The position numbers were made by a program, and so were the translations under genes. The notes under the pieces were generated by a model. The model was given only the letters and a program-made list of their open reading frames with translations. It was not told where the DNA came from and ran no database searches. Of a stretch of DNA of 64,000 bases, positions 1,454-34,310 are shown piece by piece (within the stretch, counting starts at the first letter, position 1; the number at the start of each line of letters is the position of its first letter). Source of the DNA: a virus (Duplodnaviria > Caudoviricetes); the IMG/VR virus record IMGVR_UViG_3300048895_000267, positions 4,671 through 68,670 of that record; one strand, given 5' to 3'.

Positions 1454-2233
1454 ATGGGCAAGCTGCATGAAATCCTTGCGGTCGAAAAGACCGTCGAAGA
1501 AGCCAGCAACAAGATCATTTCCGAGACCAACGCCAAGTTCGGCAAGGTCGACGCCTACTTCGCCGGCGGCATCAAGACGCTGGAGCTGCTCGAAGAAGGC
1601 CTCGCCAACAAGGCCATCGAAGCCGCGGCCGAGCAGAAGGCCGAACTGGTCACCACCGTGCACGAGACGCTCGACTACGCCCTGAACTACTGGGCCAACG
1701 CCGAAGACGTGAAGTTCCAGAAGGACTCCACGAACCAGCGCGCGATCGCCGACATCGTCGTCGATGGCGAAGTGCTCGCCAAGGACGTGCCGGTCGACAC
1801 CCTGCTCGGCCTCGAGGCTCGGCTGGTCACGCTGCGCAATACGTTCTCGCTGATGCCCACGCTCAACGCGGCGGTCGAGTGGGTACCGGCTGACGTCGGC
1901 GGCCTGCGCGGCGCCGTGCGCGCCAAGGACCCGATGGTCCAGACCAAGACCGAGAAGACCGTCGGCGCCGTCGTGCTCTACGATGCCACCGACAAGCACC
2001 CGGCCCAGCTGGAGAAAGTCACCAACGACAAGGTCGTGGGCACGTTCACCACCGTGCGCTTCTCCGGCGCGGCCAGCACGATGCAGAAGGCCGAAGTGAT
2101 CGCGCGCACCGACAAGCTGCTCGTGGCCGTCAAGCAGGCGCGCATGCGTGCCAACTCCGTCGAAGCCAACGACGGCAAGCTCGGCGCCGACATCAAGAAC
2201 TTCCTGCTTGCGCCGTTCAGCACCACGCACTAA
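1454..2233 (+). CDS. Conserved hypothetical protein, DUF7873-like (259 aa)
   Basis: GGGG RBS; biased codons; motifs KLHEILAVEK, ADIVVDG..LAKDVPV..LL.LE, ATDKHPAQ, TTVRFSGA, QARMRAN resemble the family as I recall it (not searched). Confidence 0.75.
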   Translation: MGKLHEILAVEKTVEEASNKIISETNAKFGKVDAYFAGGIKTLELLEEGLANKAIEAAAEQKAELVTTVHETLDYALNYWANAEDVKFQKDSTNQRAIADIVVDGEVLAKDVPVDTLLGLEARLVTLRNTFSLMPTLNAAVEWVPADVGGLRGAVRAKDPMVQTKTEKTVGAVVLYDATDKHPAQLEKVTNDKVVGTFTTVRFSGAASTMQKAEVIARTDKLLVAVKQARMRANSVEANDGKLGADIKNFLLAPFSTTH

Positions 2234-2403
2234 GCTTCGCATTGCTGCACCAGCACAGCTATCGGCTCACCGTTGAAAGAATACGGACAAGGCGGCCCGA
2301 CTGACAAAAGGCTGGTGCAGCTTCACTTCACGGGGGGACCCGGGAGTAAGTCCTCGCAGCTCACGCTGCCAGCCTACTGCTCCCGGGAACCTCCACCAGT
2401 TTC

Positions 2404-2518
2404 GAAGTCGGGAAGGTGGGCTTAAAAACAGCCATCCTTTAAAGAGTGGAGAAGACCCCTCACCAGAACATCGGAAGGATTAACGTCAATCCTTTAGCGT
2501 CACAGCACACCTGACTTC
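2404..2518 (+). ncRNA. Mimic of the 23S rRNA H43/H44 (L11-binding, GTPase-associated centre) with a 49-nt insert
   Basis: 2414-2448 matches E. coli 23S 1057-1091 at 28/35 and 2498-2510 matches 1092-1104 at 10/13 (E. coli sequence from memory); two compensatory changes. Confidence 0.8.
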
Positions 2519-2674
2519 GGATTCACTTCAAGGCATCCGTTATCGTTATCGTCAACGTTATGTCCCGAACCTCTATCGAAGAGGGGAAGGCGTCTCGTCC
2601 TCGTATCGCCTTGACACGTTCATCGTAATACCACGCAACAAGTACCGAGAGAGTCTCCGGCAGTAGCCGGGAAA

Positions 2675-2771
2675 CCCGTGCATCGGTGGTTCGAATCCAT
2701 CCGGCCCAGCCAAAGCGCTCTTATCCAAGAGTTCTTCGGTGGGCCGTAGCCAAGTGGTCTAAGGTAGCGGG
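2675..2771 (+). tRNA. Circularly permuted tRNA(Gln)-like domain: 3' half 2675-2712 precedes 5' half 2740-2771; no anticodon loop
   Basis: Acceptor TGGGCCG/CGGCCCA 7/7 plus G-CCA; T arm GGTGG-TTCGAAT-CCATC; D arm GCC-AAGTGGTCTAA-GGT; anticodon stem GCGGG/CCCGT. Confidence 0.8.
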
Positions 2772-3070
2772 TACCTTCTTTATCGTCCCTACTCTCGTCG
2801 GACACGACTTGCGTTGATATCCAGCTCTTAAGTGAGCACCGGACTATTAATCCGATCGATATGGAGGCCCGAGGGGCAGCGGCGAAGCCGCCCCTCGGGT
2901 ACCTCTTTCAAGCGCATTGACTCAGTGCTCTTGAACGAGGTACCACCATTCCTAAGCGGTAGGCAGCGCAGCCGAGCGCAAGTGGTTCACGGGGCATAGT
3001 GAGTAGGGCCGCCGTTCGACACGGCATCCCGCCATATCGGAAGCCACCGCTTTTTTCTTCGGAGCATCTC

Positions 3071-3436
3071 ATGTACCACAACGGCCAAGTCGTGCACAAC
3101 CTGCGCACCGGCGAACCTTGCCTCGTCAGCGACGAGGACGAAGACAGCCTGTTCGTATGGAAACAAAACGACGACACGGTGCACTACATCGAGCGCAATC
3201 CGAAGTACGACGACATGCCGAAGCCACCAAGCTACGCCACTGGCTTCCCACCGTCCGTGCAGATCAACGGCCATGAGTACCGCTACGCTGACTACCGTCG
3301 CGAGCAGGAATACTCCATCGCCACGCCGAAGACAGTCGAAGAAGCCGTACGCCTACTCGCTGACGGCCTGATCCAACCTGCCCCCCTGTCCCCCGAATAC
3401 CTTGCCCGGAGAAAAAAGCATGAACACGCAACGTGA
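3071..3436 (+). CDS. Hypothetical protein
   Basis: Start moved to ATG 3071 behind GGAG at 3061. Confidence 0.7.
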   Translation: MYHNGQVVHNLRTGEPCLVSDEDEDSLFVWKQNDDTVHYIERNPKYDDMPKPPSYATGFPPSVQINGHEYRYADYRREQEYSIATPKTVEEAVRLLADGLIQPAPLSPEYLARRKKHEHAT

Positions 3437-27446: not shown

Positions 27447-30400
27447 TTACCCCGCCACTTCCGCGGCTGCACGCGGGTCGCGCTCGGGGTTCTTCTGCTG
27501 CAGGTCGATGTGCTGCTTGACCATGGTCTCCATCGGCAGCGCAGCCTCGATCTTGGCGCCCGCCGGCTTGTCGGACAGCACCTCGCGGGCCTGAGCCGCC
27601 GAGGGGCCAAGGAACGAAGTGCCGGGCAGGCGGCCGTAGGTCGGGTCAGCCACGGCGTCGGTCAGGAACTCCTTCGGGCCGAGCAGGCCAGTGCGCTTGG
27701 CGCTGTATGCGGCGTACTCCGCCACGCCCCAGTTGTCGCGGTTCGGGTTGCCGTCCTCGCCGTACTGGAGGAACTCGCGCAGCAGCTCGGTAGCCAGCAT
27801 CATCGGGACGTAGGCCAGCGCCAGCAGCAGCGGCTCGTAGTTGCCCTCGCGGAACTCGTGCCCGATGCGCTTGAGGATCGTGCTCTGGAAGGCGTAGGTG
27901 AAGCTCTTGTACTGGCTGATCAGCATGTAGTTCGGGTCGGACGCCCACAGCGGGCGCTGCGACGGGTCCGGGCGCAGGATCGACTCGTCGACGAAGCGCA
28001 GCATCGCGTTGTGGATGCGCGCGTCACGGTCGCTGTCGCCGGTCTTCATCTTCACGAAGTCGCCGAACGCCTCGATGTCGCCGGGCTTCAGGCCCAGCTC
28101 CTTGTTGTAGCGCGCGCTGTGCTTGCCACTGCCGTCGGCGTGGCGCAGCAAGAAGCGGTGCGCCATGGCCACGGCAGCGACGCGGGTGGCCTGCGTCCAG
28201 CGGGTCAGGCCGATGGCCTTGAAGAAGAAGTCGTTGACCTGACGGGCGCCGCGGCTGAGGTACAGGCCGCCGTACGCCGAAGCCAGCGCCTCGTTGGTAG
28301 CGGTGGTCTCCACGACACCGAGGTCCTCGGCCAGCTTCCACATGTCTTCCATCGAGCCGTTCTTGCGGATCGACTTGAAGGTATCGCGGTAGGCGGCCCA
28401 CGCATCCTTGACCTTGCCGCTGCGGATCGCGATGCCGAAGCTGTCGACGATCGACGACAGCGTGGCCAGCGCGAGCAGGCGCACGTTCTGGTACACGACG
28501 AGGAAGCCCTGCACCTTGCGCATCAGCGCCGGGTTCTGCGCCAGCTTGGAGCCGAACACCTTGTCGATGCCACCAAGCAGGTGCTTGATCGCCGGCGGGT
28601 AGCCGAGGCCGTAGCTGCCCATCATCACGTCGACGAAGTCGTGGGTCAGGTCGATCTCTTCCTGCGTCGCACCCTGCTTGCGCGCTTCCTTGAGCGCCTC
28701 GAGCAGCGGGTTGGTCACCACGCGCCGGCCATCGACCATCTTCACCTCGGTCGGGAAGCGGCGGTTGAACTCGGCGCGCTTGGCCGCTGCCTCGTTGTAG
28801 CGGGTCAGCGTGTAGGCAAGGTTCGGCTCGCGGAAAGCCGCGAACGCCGAGCGCTGCGCGGGCGTGCCCTTGAGCACGAAGTCCATCAGCTGCTCGTTCA
28901 TGTAGCGGAAAGAGGGGCGCGCACCGGCCAGCCACGGCGGCGCGGCATCGCGGTCTTCGCCGGTGGCCATGGCGTAGAAGTTCTCCGCCAGCTCGCGGCC
29001 GGTCTTGGCGTCCTTGCCGAACAGCTCCTTGTGGATCTTCTTGAGCTTCTCGGCGTCGGCCGGGACGTCGGCGTCGAGTCCTTCGATCCACAGCGACTTG
29101 AGCTTGGCGCGCATCTGCGCATCGAAGTTGTTGGCGAAGTAGCTCAGGAACTCCTCGCGCTGGCCAGCCAGCTCCACGGCGTCCTTCATCACGATCGGGT
29201 AGTAGTTCGCCCGCTTGTCGAACTTGACCCCCGCTTCCTGCAGATAGTCGTAGGCACGGTTCAGGTGCGCGTTGATCTTGTTGTACGCCGCGCGCTGCTC
29301 CGGCGACAGGCTGGACGCCGGCGCCGCCTGCATCAGCACTTCCTGCAGCTGGTCGAGGTCGGACTGGTCGAGGCCGTCGATGGCGCGGCCGAGCGCGGTG
29401 TTGAGGCGGTTGGCCTCACGGTGGCGCGCCGGGAACAGGCCGATGTCGCTGGTCTGCTCGCCGCTGCCGGCCTTGAACTTCACCGCCAAGCCAGCCAGCG
29501 CCGGGATGCGGGTCGCGCGCAGGCGCTCGCCGACACCGGTCAGGAAGACCTTGTCGGCCAGCGGCAGCAAGCTACCGCGATAGTAGCGGTCGACCTCGGC
29601 CAGCGACTTGGCCAGCGCGCCCTTGCCGTGCGCGGTACGGTGGAACAGGTCGTAGCGCTCCGGGTTGCGGCCGACCTTGGCCTGCTGCACGTCGCCGAGG
29701 AACTGCTCGAAGTAGTCCGACTCGGTGAGTACGCCGACCACGCGCATGACCTCGGTCCACACGGTGCGGAACGTACCCTGTGCCTCGCGGATGTTGAGCA
29801 GGCCGTTGCGCCACGCCTTGTAGGCCACCACCATGCGGGTCTCGACGCCGAGCACCGGGTCGTCCATGGCAGCGAGCGTGCCCGGGTCGGACACCAGCTC
29901 GCGCAGCTTGGTGATCATCGGACCGCGCTGGACGATCTTCGACAGCACCGCCTTGGCGCCCTTGGGCAGCTTGCGGAAGATCTCGCGCATGGTGGTCGGG
30001 ATCGCGTTCGGGTCGGTGACGTCGGTCACCGCCGCGTGCGCTTCGGTAGGAGTGACTCCCTCCGGCAGCTTGGTGCCGTCGACGTTCTTGACCGAGCGGA
30101 TCGTGCGCTTGGCATCGACGCGCTGGGCGGTGGTCGGGCGCAGCGCCTGCAGGTACGCCTTGACGGCCGCGTCCGGCTTGGCCTTGCCCTTGAACAGGGT
30201 GGCCAGCTCGCGCAGCTTGGCAGCGACGTCGGCGAAGAACTGCTCCACTGCGCCCACGGCCTTTTTGTCGGTGGTGATGAAGCGCGCCACCTGATCGGCG
30301 AACCACTCGTCGAACATGGTGGCGTAGGACTGAGCCTCGAGGCTCATGTCGGCCAAGCGCGGACCGGTGCCGCGCAGGCCGAGGGCGTCGAACAGCTCCT

Positions 30401-33400
30401 GACGTGCCGCCGGCGCGCGCGAAGCCAGCACGTCGTACATGTGCTTGGTCGACGGCTGGCCCTTGAGCCACTTCTCGTACGCCTCGCGCAGTGCGGTCTT
30501 GGTCTCGTCGCTCGCCGTGCGCTGCATGTGGCGCTCGATCAGGTGGCCCAGCTCGTGGCTCAGGCTGGTGACCGCGTCGGCACCGCGCAGCGTGTCGCGC
30601 AGGTGAATGACGTAGCGCTTCTTGTTCGGGTCGTAGCTGATCTTGCCGAAGCCGTTGGTCTCGCTGGGCTTGACGTAGCGCACGATCACGTCGGCATCGA
30701 GGCCGAAGTGGTCGAGGAGCTGAGAAGCGAGGTGGTTGAGCTTGGCCTCGCTCAGGCGCTCGGACTGGTTGGCGGCATGGTCGACGTACGCCTGCACCAC
30801 CGGGGTCGCGCGCTCGCGCTTCTTCGGGGTATTGGGTACGTCATCGATGGTGTCTTCGGAGCTGCGCTCGCGCACCGCCTTGTTGATGCGCGCCATCAGG
30901 CTACGGCCTTCGCCGATGGTCATCGTCTCGACGGCCGCCTCGTACTTGGCCAGCGCGTTCGGGAAGGTCGCCTTGATGCGGCCGAGCAGCAGCTTCTTCT
31001 GCGGCTCGGTCATCAGCGCCGTCTCCGCGGCGCGCTTGGCCGCGTGCTCGGCGTTGTCCGCAGCCAGCTTGGCCTCGAGGCGCGCAGCGGTTTCGTTCGC
31101 TACTGCCTTCGCGGCCTTCACCTTCGGCGTCTGGCGCTTCTTGGCTTCCTTGGTCTCGACGCGCTTGGCCGCCTGCAGCGGCTCATTCTTGGCATCGAAC
31201 TCACCGATCGCCTTGGCGCGCGCAGCGATGCGACGCTTGTCGACCTCGGTATGCTCGCGGCCCGTCTCCTTGATCGGCTTGGCAGCCACCGCCGGCTTGG
31301 CCGCTGCCGGCAGTGCTTCCACCTTGGCGATGCGCTCGCGCAGGCCCTTCACCAGCGGCGCGTTCTTCTGCGCGCGCTTGCGCTTGGCTGCCTTGGCCGC
31401 GTCGAACTCATTCGACAGCTGCGCGCGCAGGTCTTTCATCTGGCCGCTGATGTTCGCCGCGCGGCGCTCGTCAGGCGTCATCTGCGTCGCCTTGTCACCA
31501 AGGTCGCGGATCTGGGCCTGCAGCGCGGCGATGGGGTCGTCGAACTCCGGCTTCGCCCCCTCACCAACAATCTGGTGGCCGCGCGGCGTTTCAGGGTTGT
31601 CATCGACAACAATGTCACCCTTCGGCTTCGCCTCGATGCGCGCGTTGGCCTGCTCAGGCGGCGCACCCATCATCGCCTCGATCACGTCCGCCTGCGGCTC
31701 GATCGCGCGCTTGGGCGAAGGTACGAACGTGTCACCGCCGGGCACCCGGTTGTCGGAGACCTCGTCGCCGACGGTGGGAGTGATGTTCTCCGGGTCGAAG
31801 TCCGCTGACTGCTGGCGCAGCTCCGGCGACATCAGGTTGTGCACGTCAGCCAGCGTGATCTTCTTGCCGTCCTTCTGGTACAGCACGAGGTTGCCGCGCG
31901 CCATCGCTTCGGGCTGGGCGACGAGGTCGCTCTGGGTCTTGAGCAGCTCCAGCGCCTTGCCGTAGGCATCGGCCACCTGCTGCAGGAAGCCGGCATCCGT
32001 AGGCGCGGTCTTCTCAGCCGAGCGCGCACGTACGAGGTTGATCAGGTGCGGCACGTCGACCATGCGCCGCTCGCCGTTCTTGCCCTCGACCTGCAGCTTG
32101 CGCGACTCGGCGTCTGCGTCCTGCGCCGGGCGAGTGATGGCGTTGTCGAGCGTCGTGGCGTAGTTGTTCTCCAGCACGGCGCCGAGCGCCGCCTCGATCC
32201 CGGAGCCCTTGATCTCGTTGCGCACCGATGCGTAGACCGCATCAGCCGCCGTCGTGCGCTCCTCGGCAGTCTTCTTGTTCTTGAGCGCCGCCTGCAAGCG
32301 CGAGTCCAGCGAGTCCAGTACGTCGTTGGCCTGCGGGTCGCCGTCGCTGGCGACGTCGCGCAGCGCCGAGCGCATGGCGCGATCCTGCATCCACGCCGAG
32401 GTGCCCGCGCCGCGGTGGGTGTTCTTGAGCTCGCGGTCGGAGACCTTGACGCCGCCGACCTTGCCGGCATCGGCGCGCTGGGCGCTGACATCCTCAGCCG
32501 TGTTGGAGCTCTCGCGCGCGAAGCGCTCGAACACCGCCCGGCGCTTGGCAGGAGTGTCGGCCAGATCGTCCAGCTGGCGGATCGCTGCCACTTCCTCACC
32601 AGACAGCGAGCCGCGCTCCTTCACCGACGCCAGCAGCGACTGGCTCGGGTTCCAGTGGGTGAGCTTGTTCTTCTCGGTGATCGGCTCGTCAGTGAGGGTC
32701 TTGGCCTGCGAGCCGGGCTGGAACAGCTTCTTGATGCCCGACTGCATGAGCTGCGCGCCCTGCGGCCCGACCAGATCCTCCAGCAGCTTCTGGTTGCCGG
32801 CGCGCTTGGTGTCGCCCTTGGCGGCATCGCGCGCGTCGAGACGCAGGACGCGGTCCTTCAGCGCGCGCTCCACCGTCGCCGCGACATTCGGACCCTGCGC
32901 AGCATCGAGGTTCGGGCCGGCCGGCGGCGGGGGGGCGACCTGCGGCGGCATGCCCTGCTCAGTGCCGCGCTCGGCCGGCGGCCGGTAGACAGAGCGCAAG
33001 TCGCCGGTCGGGCGCTGGTCGCGCAGCATGTTGACCGCGCGCGACGGGATGCCCTGCATCTGCTCGGTGTACGCCTCGGGCGACACCGGCTGCTGCTGGC
33101 CGAAGTCGAAGATCGACTGATCGCCGGGGTCCTCGTCATGGATCGAGTCGTCGCTGAAATCGATCGTGTCGTTGCCGATGTCGATCGCGTCGCGCGCCTG
33201 CGCCACGTCGCCGGCAGCGGAGCCGGTGGGCTTGCGCTTGGACAGCGCCTGCGCGACCGAGTGCGGGAACATCGCCATGCCGCCGGACAAGCCGCCGAGC
33301 GTAGCGCCGGCAGCCGTGGCATCGATGTACTCGTTGAAGGCGTCGTGGTCGAGCAGGCCGATACGGTCGTCGATCCACTTACGGCTGGCGCGCTCGATGA

Positions 33401-34310
33401 TCGTCTGCGCCAGCTCGGTGCCGCCTTCGGCCACGGCCTGCTTGCCCGCTTCGCGCAGGATGCGCGTGTGCATCTTGCCGGCCAGCGCCTTGACCTCGGT
33501 GCCGGCGATGCCACTGAGCAGGCCGGAAGTATGCAGCAGGCGGAAGGCTGGCAGGGCGTCGATGCTGCCAGCAGCGACGCCGCCAGCGAGGGTCTTGGCC
33601 GCCTTGGACTGCATCGACTCGTTGGAGCCGGGCACGTCCTGCAGGTTGTCGACCATGGAGCCGGTCTCGAGGCCCACGCTGGTCGCCGCGGCGCCGAGCG
33701 CAGCGCCCAGCTCCGCCGAGTGGCCTGCGGCTTCCTTGGCAGCCGGCAGCTTGCGCGCTGCAGCCACCGCGCGGTCGCGCAGCTGCGCCTTGGCCACACC
33801 CTCGGTCGCAGCAACCGCCTCGCCCTTCACTGCGGTCTTGGCCAGATCCCCCTCGACAGTGCCAGCCAGCGCCTTGCCGGCCGCACGCAGGCCGACGCGC
33901 TTGCCGACCGCTGCGCCGAGGCCGCCGCCGAGGAGGCTGACGGCGAGGTTCGGTCCCTGCGTCAGCGCGGTGTTCTGCACGTACTCCAGCGCGTCGCCGG
34001 GGTTTTTCACGTCGCGGATCGAGCTGACGCGCGGGGCGTTGGCGGCGCCCTGCTCTTCCAGCTGCTGCGCGCGGCGCAGGCCGCGCCGGGCGGCGTTCTC
34101 ACGACCGACCAGCGCGTTGCCGACGGCGCCGAGGCCCTCGTTGGTAGCTTCGAGCTGGCCGATGCCCTGATTGAAAGCCTTGGTGGCTTCGCTCTGGTAC
34201 GGAGTTTCGGCGGTGACGGCGTTGGCGTCAGACAGCACGCCGCCGGGCGCCGACAAGCGAGCGCGCTCTTCGGGCGTCATACGCAATCCGAGCACACTCG
34301 GCACAGCCAT
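27447..34310 (-). CDS. Giant internal virion or ejection protein (2287 aa) with a zincin-like HExxH domain
   Basis: Position after the structural genes; SHELGH...DEWFAD; helical C-terminal region. Confidence 0.8.
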   Translation of the reverse strand: MAVPSVLGLRMTPEERARLSAPGGVLSDANAVTAETPYQSEATKAFNQGIGQLEATNEGLGAVGNALVGRENAARRGLRRAQQLEEQGAANAPRVSSIRDVKNPGDALEYVQNTALTQGPNLAVSLLGGGLGAAVGKRVGLRAAGKALAGTVEGDLAKTAVKGEAVAATEGVAKAQLRDRAVAAARKLPAAKEAAGHSAELGAALGAAATSVGLETGSMVDNLQDVPGSNESMQSKAAKTLAGGVAAGSIDALPAFRLLHTSGLLSGIAGTEVKALAGKMHTRILREAGKQAVAEGGTELAQTIIERASRKWIDDRIGLLDHDAFNEYIDATAAGATLGGLSGGMAMFPHSVAQALSKRKPTGSAAGDVAQARDAIDIGNDTIDFSDDSIHDEDPGDQSIFDFGQQQPVSPEAYTEQMQGIPSRAVNMLRDQRPTGDLRSVYRPPAERGTEQGMPPQVAPPPPAGPNLDAAQGPNVAATVERALKDRVLRLDARDAAKGDTKRAGNQKLLEDLVGPQGAQLMQSGIKKLFQPGSQAKTLTDEPITEKNKLTHWNPSQSLLASVKERGSLSGEEVAAIRQLDDLADTPAKRRAVFERFARESSNTAEDVSAQRADAGKVGGVKVSDRELKNTHRGAGTSAWMQDRAMRSALRDVASDGDPQANDVLDSLDSRLQAALKNKKTAEERTTAADAVYASVRNEIKGSGIEAALGAVLENNYATTLDNAITRPAQDADAESRKLQVEGKNGERRMVDVPHLINLVRARSAEKTAPTDAGFLQQVADAYGKALELLKTQSDLVAQPEAMARGNLVLYQKDGKKITLADVHNLMSPELRQQSADFDPENITPTVGDEVSDNRVPGGDTFVPSPKRAIEPQADVIEAMMGAPPEQANARIEAKPKGDIVVDDNPETPRGHQIVGEGAKPEFDDPIAALQAQIRDLGDKATQMTPDERRAANISGQMKDLRAQLSNEFDAAKAAKRKRAQKNAPLVKGLRERIAKVEALPAAAKPAVAAKPIKETGREHTEVDKRRIAARAKAIGEFDAKNEPLQAAKRVETKEAKKRQTPKVKAAKAVANETAARLEAKLAADNAEHAAKRAAETALMTEPQKKLLLGRIKATFPNALAKYEAAVETMTIGEGRSLMARINKAVRERSSEDTIDDVPNTPKKRERATPVVQAYVDHAANQSERLSEAKLNHLASQLLDHFGLDADVIVRYVKPSETNGFGKISYDPNKKRYVIHLRDTLRGADAVTSLSHELGHLIERHMQRTASDETKTALREAYEKWLKGQPSTKHMYDVLASRAPAARQELFDALGLRGTGPRLADMSLEAQSYATMFDEWFADQVARFITTDKKAVGAVEQFFADVAAKLRELATLFKGKAKPDAAVKAYLQALRPTTAQRVDAKRTIRSVKNVDGTKLPEGVTPTEAHAAVTDVTDPNAIPTTMREIFRKLPKGAKAVLSKIVQRGPMITKLRELVSDPGTLAAMDDPVLGVETRMVVAYKAWRNGLLNIREAQGTFRTVWTEVMRVVGVLTESDYFEQFLGDVQQAKVGRNPERYDLFHRTAHGKGALAKSLAEVDRYYRGSLLPLADKVFLTGVGERLRATRIPALAGLAVKFKAGSGEQTSDIGLFPARHREANRLNTALGRAIDGLDQSDLDQLQEVLMQAAPASSLSPEQRAAYNKINAHLNRAYDYLQEAGVKFDKRANYYPIVMKDAVELAGQREEFLSYFANNFDAQMRAKLKSLWIEGLDADVPADAEKLKKIHKELFGKDAKTGRELAENFYAMATGEDRDAAPPWLAGARPSFRYMNEQLMDFVLKGTPAQRSAFAAFREPNLAYTLTRYNEAAAKRAEFNRRFPTEVKMVDGRRVVTNPLLEALKEARKQGATQEEIDLTHDFVDVMMGSYGLGYPPAIKHLLGGIDKVFGSKLAQNPALMRKVQGFLVVYQNVRLLALATLSSIVDSFGIAIRSGKVKDAWAAYRDTFKSIRKNGSMEDMWKLAEDLGVVETTATNEALASAYGGLYLSRGARQVNDFFFKAIGLTRWTQATRVAAVAMAHRFLLRHADGSGKHSARYNKELGLKPGDIEAFGDFVKMKTGDSDRDARIHNAMLRFVDESILRPDPSQRPLWASDPNYMLISQYKSFTYAFQSTILKRIGHEFREGNYEPLLLALAYVPMMLATELLREFLQYGEDGNPNRDNWGVAEYAAYSAKRTGLLGPKEFLTDAVADPTYGRLPGTSFLGPSAAQAREVLSDKPAGAKIEAALPMETMVKQHIDLQQKNPERDPRAAAEVAG

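Follow-up and report, generated by a model that had tools for sequence, protein, structure and literature searches.

The GTPase-associated centre (GAC) of bacterial 23S rRNA (E. coli positions 1051–1108), also studied as the 58-nt uL11/thiostrepton domain, is the closest described counterpart of the RNA reported here. Its protein ligand uL11 is required for RelA activation, ribosomes without uL11 being unable to activate RelA, and A1067 contacts the elbow of the A/T-state tRNA. The U1060-A1088 pair of the domain hydrogen-bonds to Gly130-Thr131 of uL11; in vivo, E. coli uL11 is incorporated even into yeast ribosomes, and its complex with the yeast domain is predicted by modelling to be stable (PMC2175356). 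The cleft between H43 and H44 is bound by thiopeptides, and the Tre23 toxin ADP-ribosylates H44 at positions 1095–1098 (PMC8661411). Among the large RNAs encoded by phages, GOLLD and ROOL form RNA-only cages (PMC12286853). Here we describe a 117-nt non-coding RNA in a soil phage that is a copy of the fold of the 23S GAC, together with the phage RNA family to which it belongs. To our knowledge, free-standing copies of functional rRNA domains have not been described from viruses before. Full-text searches of the accessible literature found no description of such an RNA, and the family is apparently undescribed.

The GAC-like element at 2403–2519

The window analysed here is a 64,000-nt stretch of a soil phage contig from IMG/VR whose total length is 68.7 kb. 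The E. coli rrlH 23S sequence (L042) served as the reference for comparison, and window positions equal E. coli 23S positions plus 1357 for 1046–1090 and plus 1406 for 1091–1113. The element occupies 2403–2519 on the plus strand and covers the equivalents of the end of H42, H43 and H44. Its closing helix, read from the sequence and aligned to the family covariance model R1 described below, pairs 2403–2412 (the equivalent of the H42 end, 1046–1055) with 2510–2519 (1104–1113). An earlier sequence-only reading of this DNA had proposed a closing helix of 9 bp; the helix is present, and its length is 10 bp, including one G-U pair. The H43-like hairpin (1057–1081; aligned to 23S and R1) lies at 2414–2438, with U1060 at 2417, A1067 at 2424, an A replacing G1071 at 2428, and a G-C pair at 1058-1080 (2415 with 2437). 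It is followed by the junction and the lower 5' strand of H44, UUAAAGAGU (1082–1090; aligned to the family and R1), at 2439–2447, where the tertiary pair U1082-A1086 is formed by 2439 and 2443, A1088 is at 2445, and U1090 (2447) pairs with A1101 (2507).

An expansion insert, placed by family covariation and by the fold at a site between 1090 and 1091 that is fixed in the family, spans 2448–2492. It is closed by a base helix GGA/UCC (2448–2450 with 2490–2492; pairs G2448-C2492, G2449-C2491 and A2450-U2490), and the family alignment places a UUUA linker after it at 2493–2496, which is an instance of a UUUR signature of the family and does not occur in rRNA; in all, the expansion after U1090 amounts to 49 nt. 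A perfect 7-bp hairpin AAGGATT/AATCCTT, noted earlier in this insert, exists at 2475–2481 with 2488–2494 and is part of the minimum-energy fold of the window copy; there it competes with the conserved base helix of the insert. The top and 3' strand of H44 (1091–1103; alignment and R1) follow at 2497–2509 and read GC, loop GUCACA, GC, A1101, C1102 and A1103, position 1095 being a C (2501). The identities to E. coli 23S that had been claimed held when counted on the real rrlH, namely 28/35 for 2414–2448 against 1057–1091 and 10/13 for 2498–2510 against 1092–1104, as did the retention of A1067 and the presence of A at 1071 and C at 1095 (2424, 2428 and 2501).

Chance resemblance, a chimera with rRNA reads and a decaying captured rRNA fragment would each make this likeness an artefact. 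Local alignment to 23S gave z = 10.8 against shuffles, and by the binomial only about 0.005 matches of 28/35 to 23S are expected over the whole window. When 2234–3070 was compared with E. coli 16S, 23S and 5S rRNA, only 2415–2444 resembled 23S and the rest was not rRNA-like; an Rfam scan of the window at the gathering score gave no match, LSU included, and a permissive Rfam scan of 2100–3200 gave no match on the GAC-like element. For the assembly check, four soil DNA sequencing runs were used. Three contigs span the element and its junctions with zero differences: one of 11.5 kb, which is possibly the source, one of 1,029 nt from a second run and one of 189 nt from a third. Those of the second and third soil metagenome runs cover 2200–2800 (X2) and 2327–2515 (X3), and no variants were found in the four runs. 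The agreement of independent soil assemblies across the element and its two junctions shows that it is no chimera. An artefact would be in keeping with the genuine 23S contigs from the same soil samples, which also cover 2414–2448, and with a match in the GenBank genome of Paenibacillus phage Pd_22F that is a plain 23S-like stretch without the family traits. However, the short 23S contigs align only to 2414–2448 and then run on as rRNA, the contigs from other samples cross both junctions unchanged, the family model matches the window with an E value of 6e-19, and compensatory changes and family-specific traits are present. We regard an artefactual origin as extremely improbable.

A family of GAC-like RNAs in phages

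IMG/VR was scanned with a pattern of the H43 core that fixed most H43 positions, which yielded 91 contigs. A true 23S gene was found in one of them (L117); in the others the rRNA-like part was just 30–50 nt, and an H44-like 3' half lay 24 to 335 nt downstream in 54 of 59 distinct sequences. A covariance model of 137 positions (R1) was built from seven IMG/VR members, with the window left out. R1 matched all 91 first-scan loci with 40–121 bits, and on the window it gave a single match at 2405–2520 that covered model positions 1–137 of 137 with 83.4 bits (E 6e-19), a score in the middle of the family range; on the whole contig, this match was the sole one. The true E. coli GAC (23S 1048–1114) was also matched end to end, with the insert deleted (56.1 bits, E 1e-11), and the Rfam LSU model matched member L047 with E 2e-4 in a small search. 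A second scan used the family-specific H44 half and was unbiased for H43. It yielded at least 120 contigs, at least 94 of them new, and R1 gave at least 88 matches in the new loci, with 82 distinct sequences among the matches listed. The family thus recovered from IMG/VR and, as described below, from cultured phages is large, with at least 141 distinct members in IMG/VR and scores of 28–121 bits overall.

The members share a common plan, which consists of a closing helix of variable sequence, H43, UUUAAAGAGU, an inserted stem, the UUUR linker and the H44 top; the 3' part of the plan runs GC, a GUAAUA-type loop, GC, A1101 C A C and the closing helix. Three traits of the family are absent from rRNA, namely the variable stem after U1090, the UUUR linker and A1101. 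The window copy carries an insert after AAAGAGU, a Watson-Crick base helix, the UUUR linker and A1101. Across members the inserts measure 24 to 335 nt and are highly variable, and no rRNA likeness was found in them. An insert motif of CACCCCG, a 4-nt loop and GGUAAGG recurs in L045, L047, L085, L097, L102, L109 and L112, just upstream of the 3' strand of the insert stem, and is not rRNA-like.

Covariation was examined in 24 members, in which 92.3% of cells were paired, against only 35–54% when the partners were slid, and the covariation score was 0.600 against 0.168 in shuffles (0/500). Two-sided changes occurred in 10/10 closing pairs and 4/4 insert base pairs. The pair 1058-1080 was GC in 11 of these members, UA in 7 and AU in 6. 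Among the matches listed from the second scan, the 82 distinct members showed UA (35), GC (22), AU (14) and CG (4) at 1058-1080, AU (74) and CG (8) at 1057-1081, and CG (70) and AU (8) at 1064-1074. In the same 82 members, the insert pair X1-Y1 was GC in 43, AU in 24 and UA in 6, and X2-Y2 was GC in 50, AU in 13 and UA in 9. The lone tertiary pair 1082-1086 was UA in 34, CG in 30 and AU in 12 of these 82 members among the matches listed, position 1056 covaried with it, and the pairs of highest mutual information were exactly those predicted, 1082-1086 included. U1060-A1088 was invariant (82/82), as were G1071 and C1072, also among the matches listed. Since 1082-1086 covaries and the uL11-contacting U1060-A1088 is invariant, the phage RNAs are under selection to keep the three-dimensional architecture of the rRNA domain. 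The compensatory change at 1058-1080 claimed for the window copy belongs to a pair for which the family shows every Watson-Crick combination, and the change of 1090-1101 to U-A is a signature throughout; the proposal that the H43/H44 fold is under selection and is no decayed rRNA scrap is borne out by covariation in all helices. The element is therefore a stand-alone RNA domain homologous to the GAC, in which the secondary and tertiary pairs of the rRNA are kept by selection.

The loops behave differently from this framework. Family variation is greatest at loop positions 1095–1097 and 1067, and A1067 is retained in 79% of the 82 members among the matches listed and replaced by G in 17%. The A at 1071 and the C at 1095 of the window copy are minority states in the family; A1071 also occurs in member L043, and C1095 in L052 and L100. 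Because of these minority states and because A1067 reaches only 79%, the loop tips are not under absolute constraint. Judged from its letters, we see no sign of decay in the window copy.

Cultured phages carry members as well, all unannotated: the Pseudomonas phages Astolliot (94 bits; L136:1496–1675) and pf16 (89 bits; L134:1497–1690), Xanthomonas phage XacN1 (78 bits), Aeromonas phage 4_4572 (77 bits) and Serratia phage BF (58 bits). In XacN1 (L135:830–1732), the GAC-like RNA begins some 15 nt downstream of an annotated 2'-5' RNA ligase gene and not in a tRNA array. The match in Pd_22F (L138:1194–1260) was rejected as a member, being a plain 23S-like GAC with no insert and with U1101; it lies within 1.7 kb of unannotated sequence and may be a captured or contaminating rRNA fragment. 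The Pseudomonas and Xanthomonas phage copies have G-C at 1058-1080 and GAGU at 1087–1090, where E. coli has U-A and GAAA. The gamma-proteobacterial hosts of these phages are presumably E. coli-like at both sites; if so, the copies do not simply track host rRNA, since their letters differ from those of E. coli. The shared insert site, linker and A1101, together with this apparent lack of tracking, point to a single origin of the family.

Genomic setting of the family and of the window copy

A tRNA gene lies within 500 nt of 84 of the 141 distinct members, and all 473 tRNA genes within 2 kb of members are on the strand of the element. The element often begins a few bases past one tRNA and ends just ahead of the next. 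The common strand and the tight tRNA flanks point to co-transcription and release by tRNA-processing enzymes. No protein family was recurrent among its neighbours (at most 5 of 58 loci), and no Rfam family lies over the element. GOLLD is within 120 nt of the member in L044 and is also found near members in L057 and L003.

This setting bears on two alternative functions. In the first, the RNA would have no function in trans and would be a spacer or processing module of tRNA-type transcripts, or a selfish rRNA-derived mobile cassette. Its patchy presence among related phages, its highly variable inserts and its position beside other mobile-looking small RNA modules, such as the 2255–2302 motif described below, are all consistent with this. 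However, a spacer need not keep 1082-1086, 1060-1088 and the loop sequences across at least 141 diverged copies, and these diverged copies come from phages of different hosts; we consider such a passive role quite unlikely. In the second, the RNA would decoy an agent that attacks the GAC (a toxin, a defence effector or a thiopeptide) and so shield the ribosomes that the phage needs. Agents of this type exist in Tre23, which modifies H44 at 1095–1098, and in the thiopeptides, which bind the H43/H44 cleft (PMC8661411). The genomic niche shared with phage tRNA genes also fits, as does the failure to find a dedicated phage protein partner. For some phage tRNAs, a role in replacing or shielding host tRNAs that defence nucleases attack has been proposed. 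On the other hand, the positions that such agents read (1095–1097 and 1067) are the most variable of the family, and our literature searches found no phage-defence system directed at the GAC, nor do we otherwise know of one. Shielding from an attacking agent is thus a minority possibility, although it overlaps with the uL11-binding decoy discussed below, since recognition of the decoy may require uL11.

The window copy itself sits in an 838-nt gene-free stretch (2234–3070) downstream of a gene for a DUF7873 protein (1454–2233, plus strand; Pfam PF25283, E 1e-67), a family for which we know of no function. A scan for promoters and terminators gave little information; it predicted no terminator between this gene and the RNA region. 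ARAGORN found no tRNA or tmRNA genes in the window, and the contig has no tRNA genes; the copy therefore lies outside the tRNA-array location usual for the family, which is a matter of context and not a structural criterion, and the release route proposed for other members is not directly applicable in this phage. A megablast search with 12 kb found no close relative among GenBank phages, and none of the loci related through the DUF7873 gene carries a GAC-like element. There is consequently no orthologous alignment for the window copy, and the element appears dispensable for that phage lineage, as its close DUF7873 relatives lack a GAC copy. The DUF7873 relatives being without a GAC copy, the one in the window looks like an acquired module, inserted where this phage has its counterpart of a tRNA region. 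On the plus strand, the RNA region is followed by a block encoding a DUF5906 primase-like protein, an SNF2 helicase and a family A DNA polymerase, so that it heads the replication module; a 2,287-aa open reading frame occupies 27447–34310 on the minus strand.

The 838-nt stretch is highly structured, with a minimum free energy of -336 kcal/mol (z = -7.1 against shuffles). It contains long perfect hairpins, for example CCCGGGAG/CUCCCGGG at 2340–2388 and GGUACC-closed stems at 2864–2945. At 2255–2302 lies a core of about 48 nt (ACAGCUAUCNGCUCACCGUUGAAAGAAUACGGACAAG...) that is 90–98% identical in 50 GenBank phages of unrelated groups, with Aeromonas, Enterobacter, Salmonella, Acinetobacter, Serratia and Pseudomonas phages among the carriers, and is always unannotated. 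In 3/3 inspected matches it lies inside tRNA arrays (L001:2494–2556, L002:2501–2548 and L003:2501–2548). Its closing stem differs from phage to phage yet pairs, here as 2244–2254 with 2311–2321, the whole motif spanning 2244–2321; it has no Rfam match and no rRNA likeness. A tie of this motif to the GAC family was considered and dropped, a similar insert hairpin being found only in the L054 group.

About 150 nt past the GAC copy begins a permuted tRNA-like element (2674–2772, plus strand; weak beta_tmRNA match, E 6e-7). It comprises a T-arm (2685–2701), the acceptor 3' strand (2702–2708), GCCA (2709–2712), a 27-nt linker, the acceptor 5' strand (2740–2746) and a D-arm (2749–2765). Similar elements lie 60–630 nt downstream of the DUF7873 gene in about 30 of 34 related phage loci (L005–L041), in the order T-arm, acceptor 3' strand, usually NCCA, a linker of 1–34 nt, acceptor 5' strand and D-arm. 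Their anticodon stem opens into the flanking sequence, and the acceptor stems are diverse yet always paired; ARAGORN calls none of these DUF7873-linked elements.

The proximity of the two RNAs raises a further possibility, in which the GAC copy, with or without uL11, would act as a docking platform that binds a translation GTPase, RelA or a tRNA elbow, and would block or mimic the uncharged-tRNA signal of the stringent response. For this phage, the elbow would be that of the neighbouring tRNA-like element. A tRNA-like domain some 150 nt downstream within one structured stretch (z = -7.1) fits such a platform, and the roles of uL11 in RelA activation and of A1067 in contacting the tRNA elbow agree with it. 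The link is not conserved, however: DUF7873 relatives have the tRNA-like element without a GAC copy, and most members of the family lie among ordinary tRNAs. Moreover, we know of no case in which the GAC alone, without the sarcin-ricin loop, holds factors. Docking therefore seems to us doubtful.

Proposed role and comparison with known systems

With moderate confidence, we propose that the free-standing GAC copy most likely is a uL11-binding decoy that acts off the ribosome. The GAC copy would share a plus-strand transcript with the DUF7873 gene and the remaining RNA modules of the 838-nt stretch, and the RNA would fold as its own domain, closed by the 10-bp helix. The free RNA would then bind host uL11, the most likely ligand because the RNA keeps the tertiary framework of the rRNA and the U1060-A1088 pair, the features on which recognition by uL11 chiefly depends. 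It would display its 1067 and 1095 loops off the ribosome, and the decoy would titrate uL11, or whatever factor of the host or of a competitor attacks or docks on the GAC; the modification of H44 by Tre23 shows that this site is indeed attacked. Transcription, release, uL11 binding and the decoy role are all steps that we infer from sequence comparisons. No genes for uL11, RelA/SpoT or Ro60 were found in this phage; given this, and with no recurrent neighbour protein in the family, the partner is probably a host component. Binding of uL10 is less likely, as the H42-like stem keeps its pairing and not its sequence, and no further H42 features were seen; uL10 needs more of H42 than the terminal stem.

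Several observations weigh against a uL11-binding decoy in this phage. A1071 and C1095 are minority states, and the conservation of A1067 is limited (79% among the matches listed). The insert hairpin of the window copy competes with the base helix of the family, the phage has no tRNA genes for the proposed release route, and its close DUF7873 relatives do without the element. A broader formulation, which we put forward tentatively, is that a trans-acting GAC miniature captures host uL11 or a factor that reads this site, which would stop uL11-dependent signalling (RelA) or shield ribosomes, and that in this phage it may be joined to the DUF7873-linked tRNA-like RNA as a composite translation mimic. 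As the family is large and strongly conserved and has laboratory-growable phages, the role of the proposed decoy in infection is directly testable.

Among known systems, the leaders of r-protein operons (the L10 leader, RF00557, and the L1 site in the L11-operon mRNA) are likewise copies of an r-protein site outside the ribosome. These leaders are cis-regulatory, cellular and loosely rRNA-like, whereas the phage RNA is near-identical to the rRNA domain; no r-protein gene lies near the element, the contig has no Ribosomal_L11 match, and no Rfam leader matches. The large ornate RNAs GOLLD and ROOL, which occur in phages and in tRNA arrays, share their niche with the GAC family and have no sequence or structural relation to it; unlike the GAC-like RNA, they mimic no known cellular RNA. 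The neighbouring element at 2674–2772 has the order T-arm, capped acceptor stem and D-arm of the YrlA Y RNAs and of two-piece tmRNA (PMC4201824), and its 7-bp acceptor stem and encoded CCA are like those of M. smegmatis YrlA and of permuted tmRNA genes. It differs in several respects: it gave no match to the Rfam YrlA model and showed no tag reading frame, a Ro60 gene is absent from the phage, and its partner gene encodes DUF7873.

The bacterial 23S GAC remains the nearest counterpart. Both RNAs have the same secondary structure, with a near-identical H43 and H44 top, and share the tertiary pairs, U1060-A1088 being invariant and 1082-1086 covarying. In contrast to the rRNA domain, the phage RNA is a stand-alone gene of about 100–400 nt with non-rRNA flanks; its H42 part keeps pairing alone, a stem follows U1090 and is itself followed by the UUUR linker, and position 1101 is A (U1090-A1101), where the true 23S sequences compared have U1101. 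The window copy additionally has A1071 and C1095, and instead of the context of a complete LSU rRNA gene its flanks are the DUF7873 gene and small RNA modules. Taken together, the phage element derives from the 23S GAC and probably works like it, outside any rRNA gene. If true, it would represent a new kind of host-mimicking RNA and could reveal a previously unrecognized way for phages to control translation or the stringent response, or a hitherto unknown host attack on the GAC.
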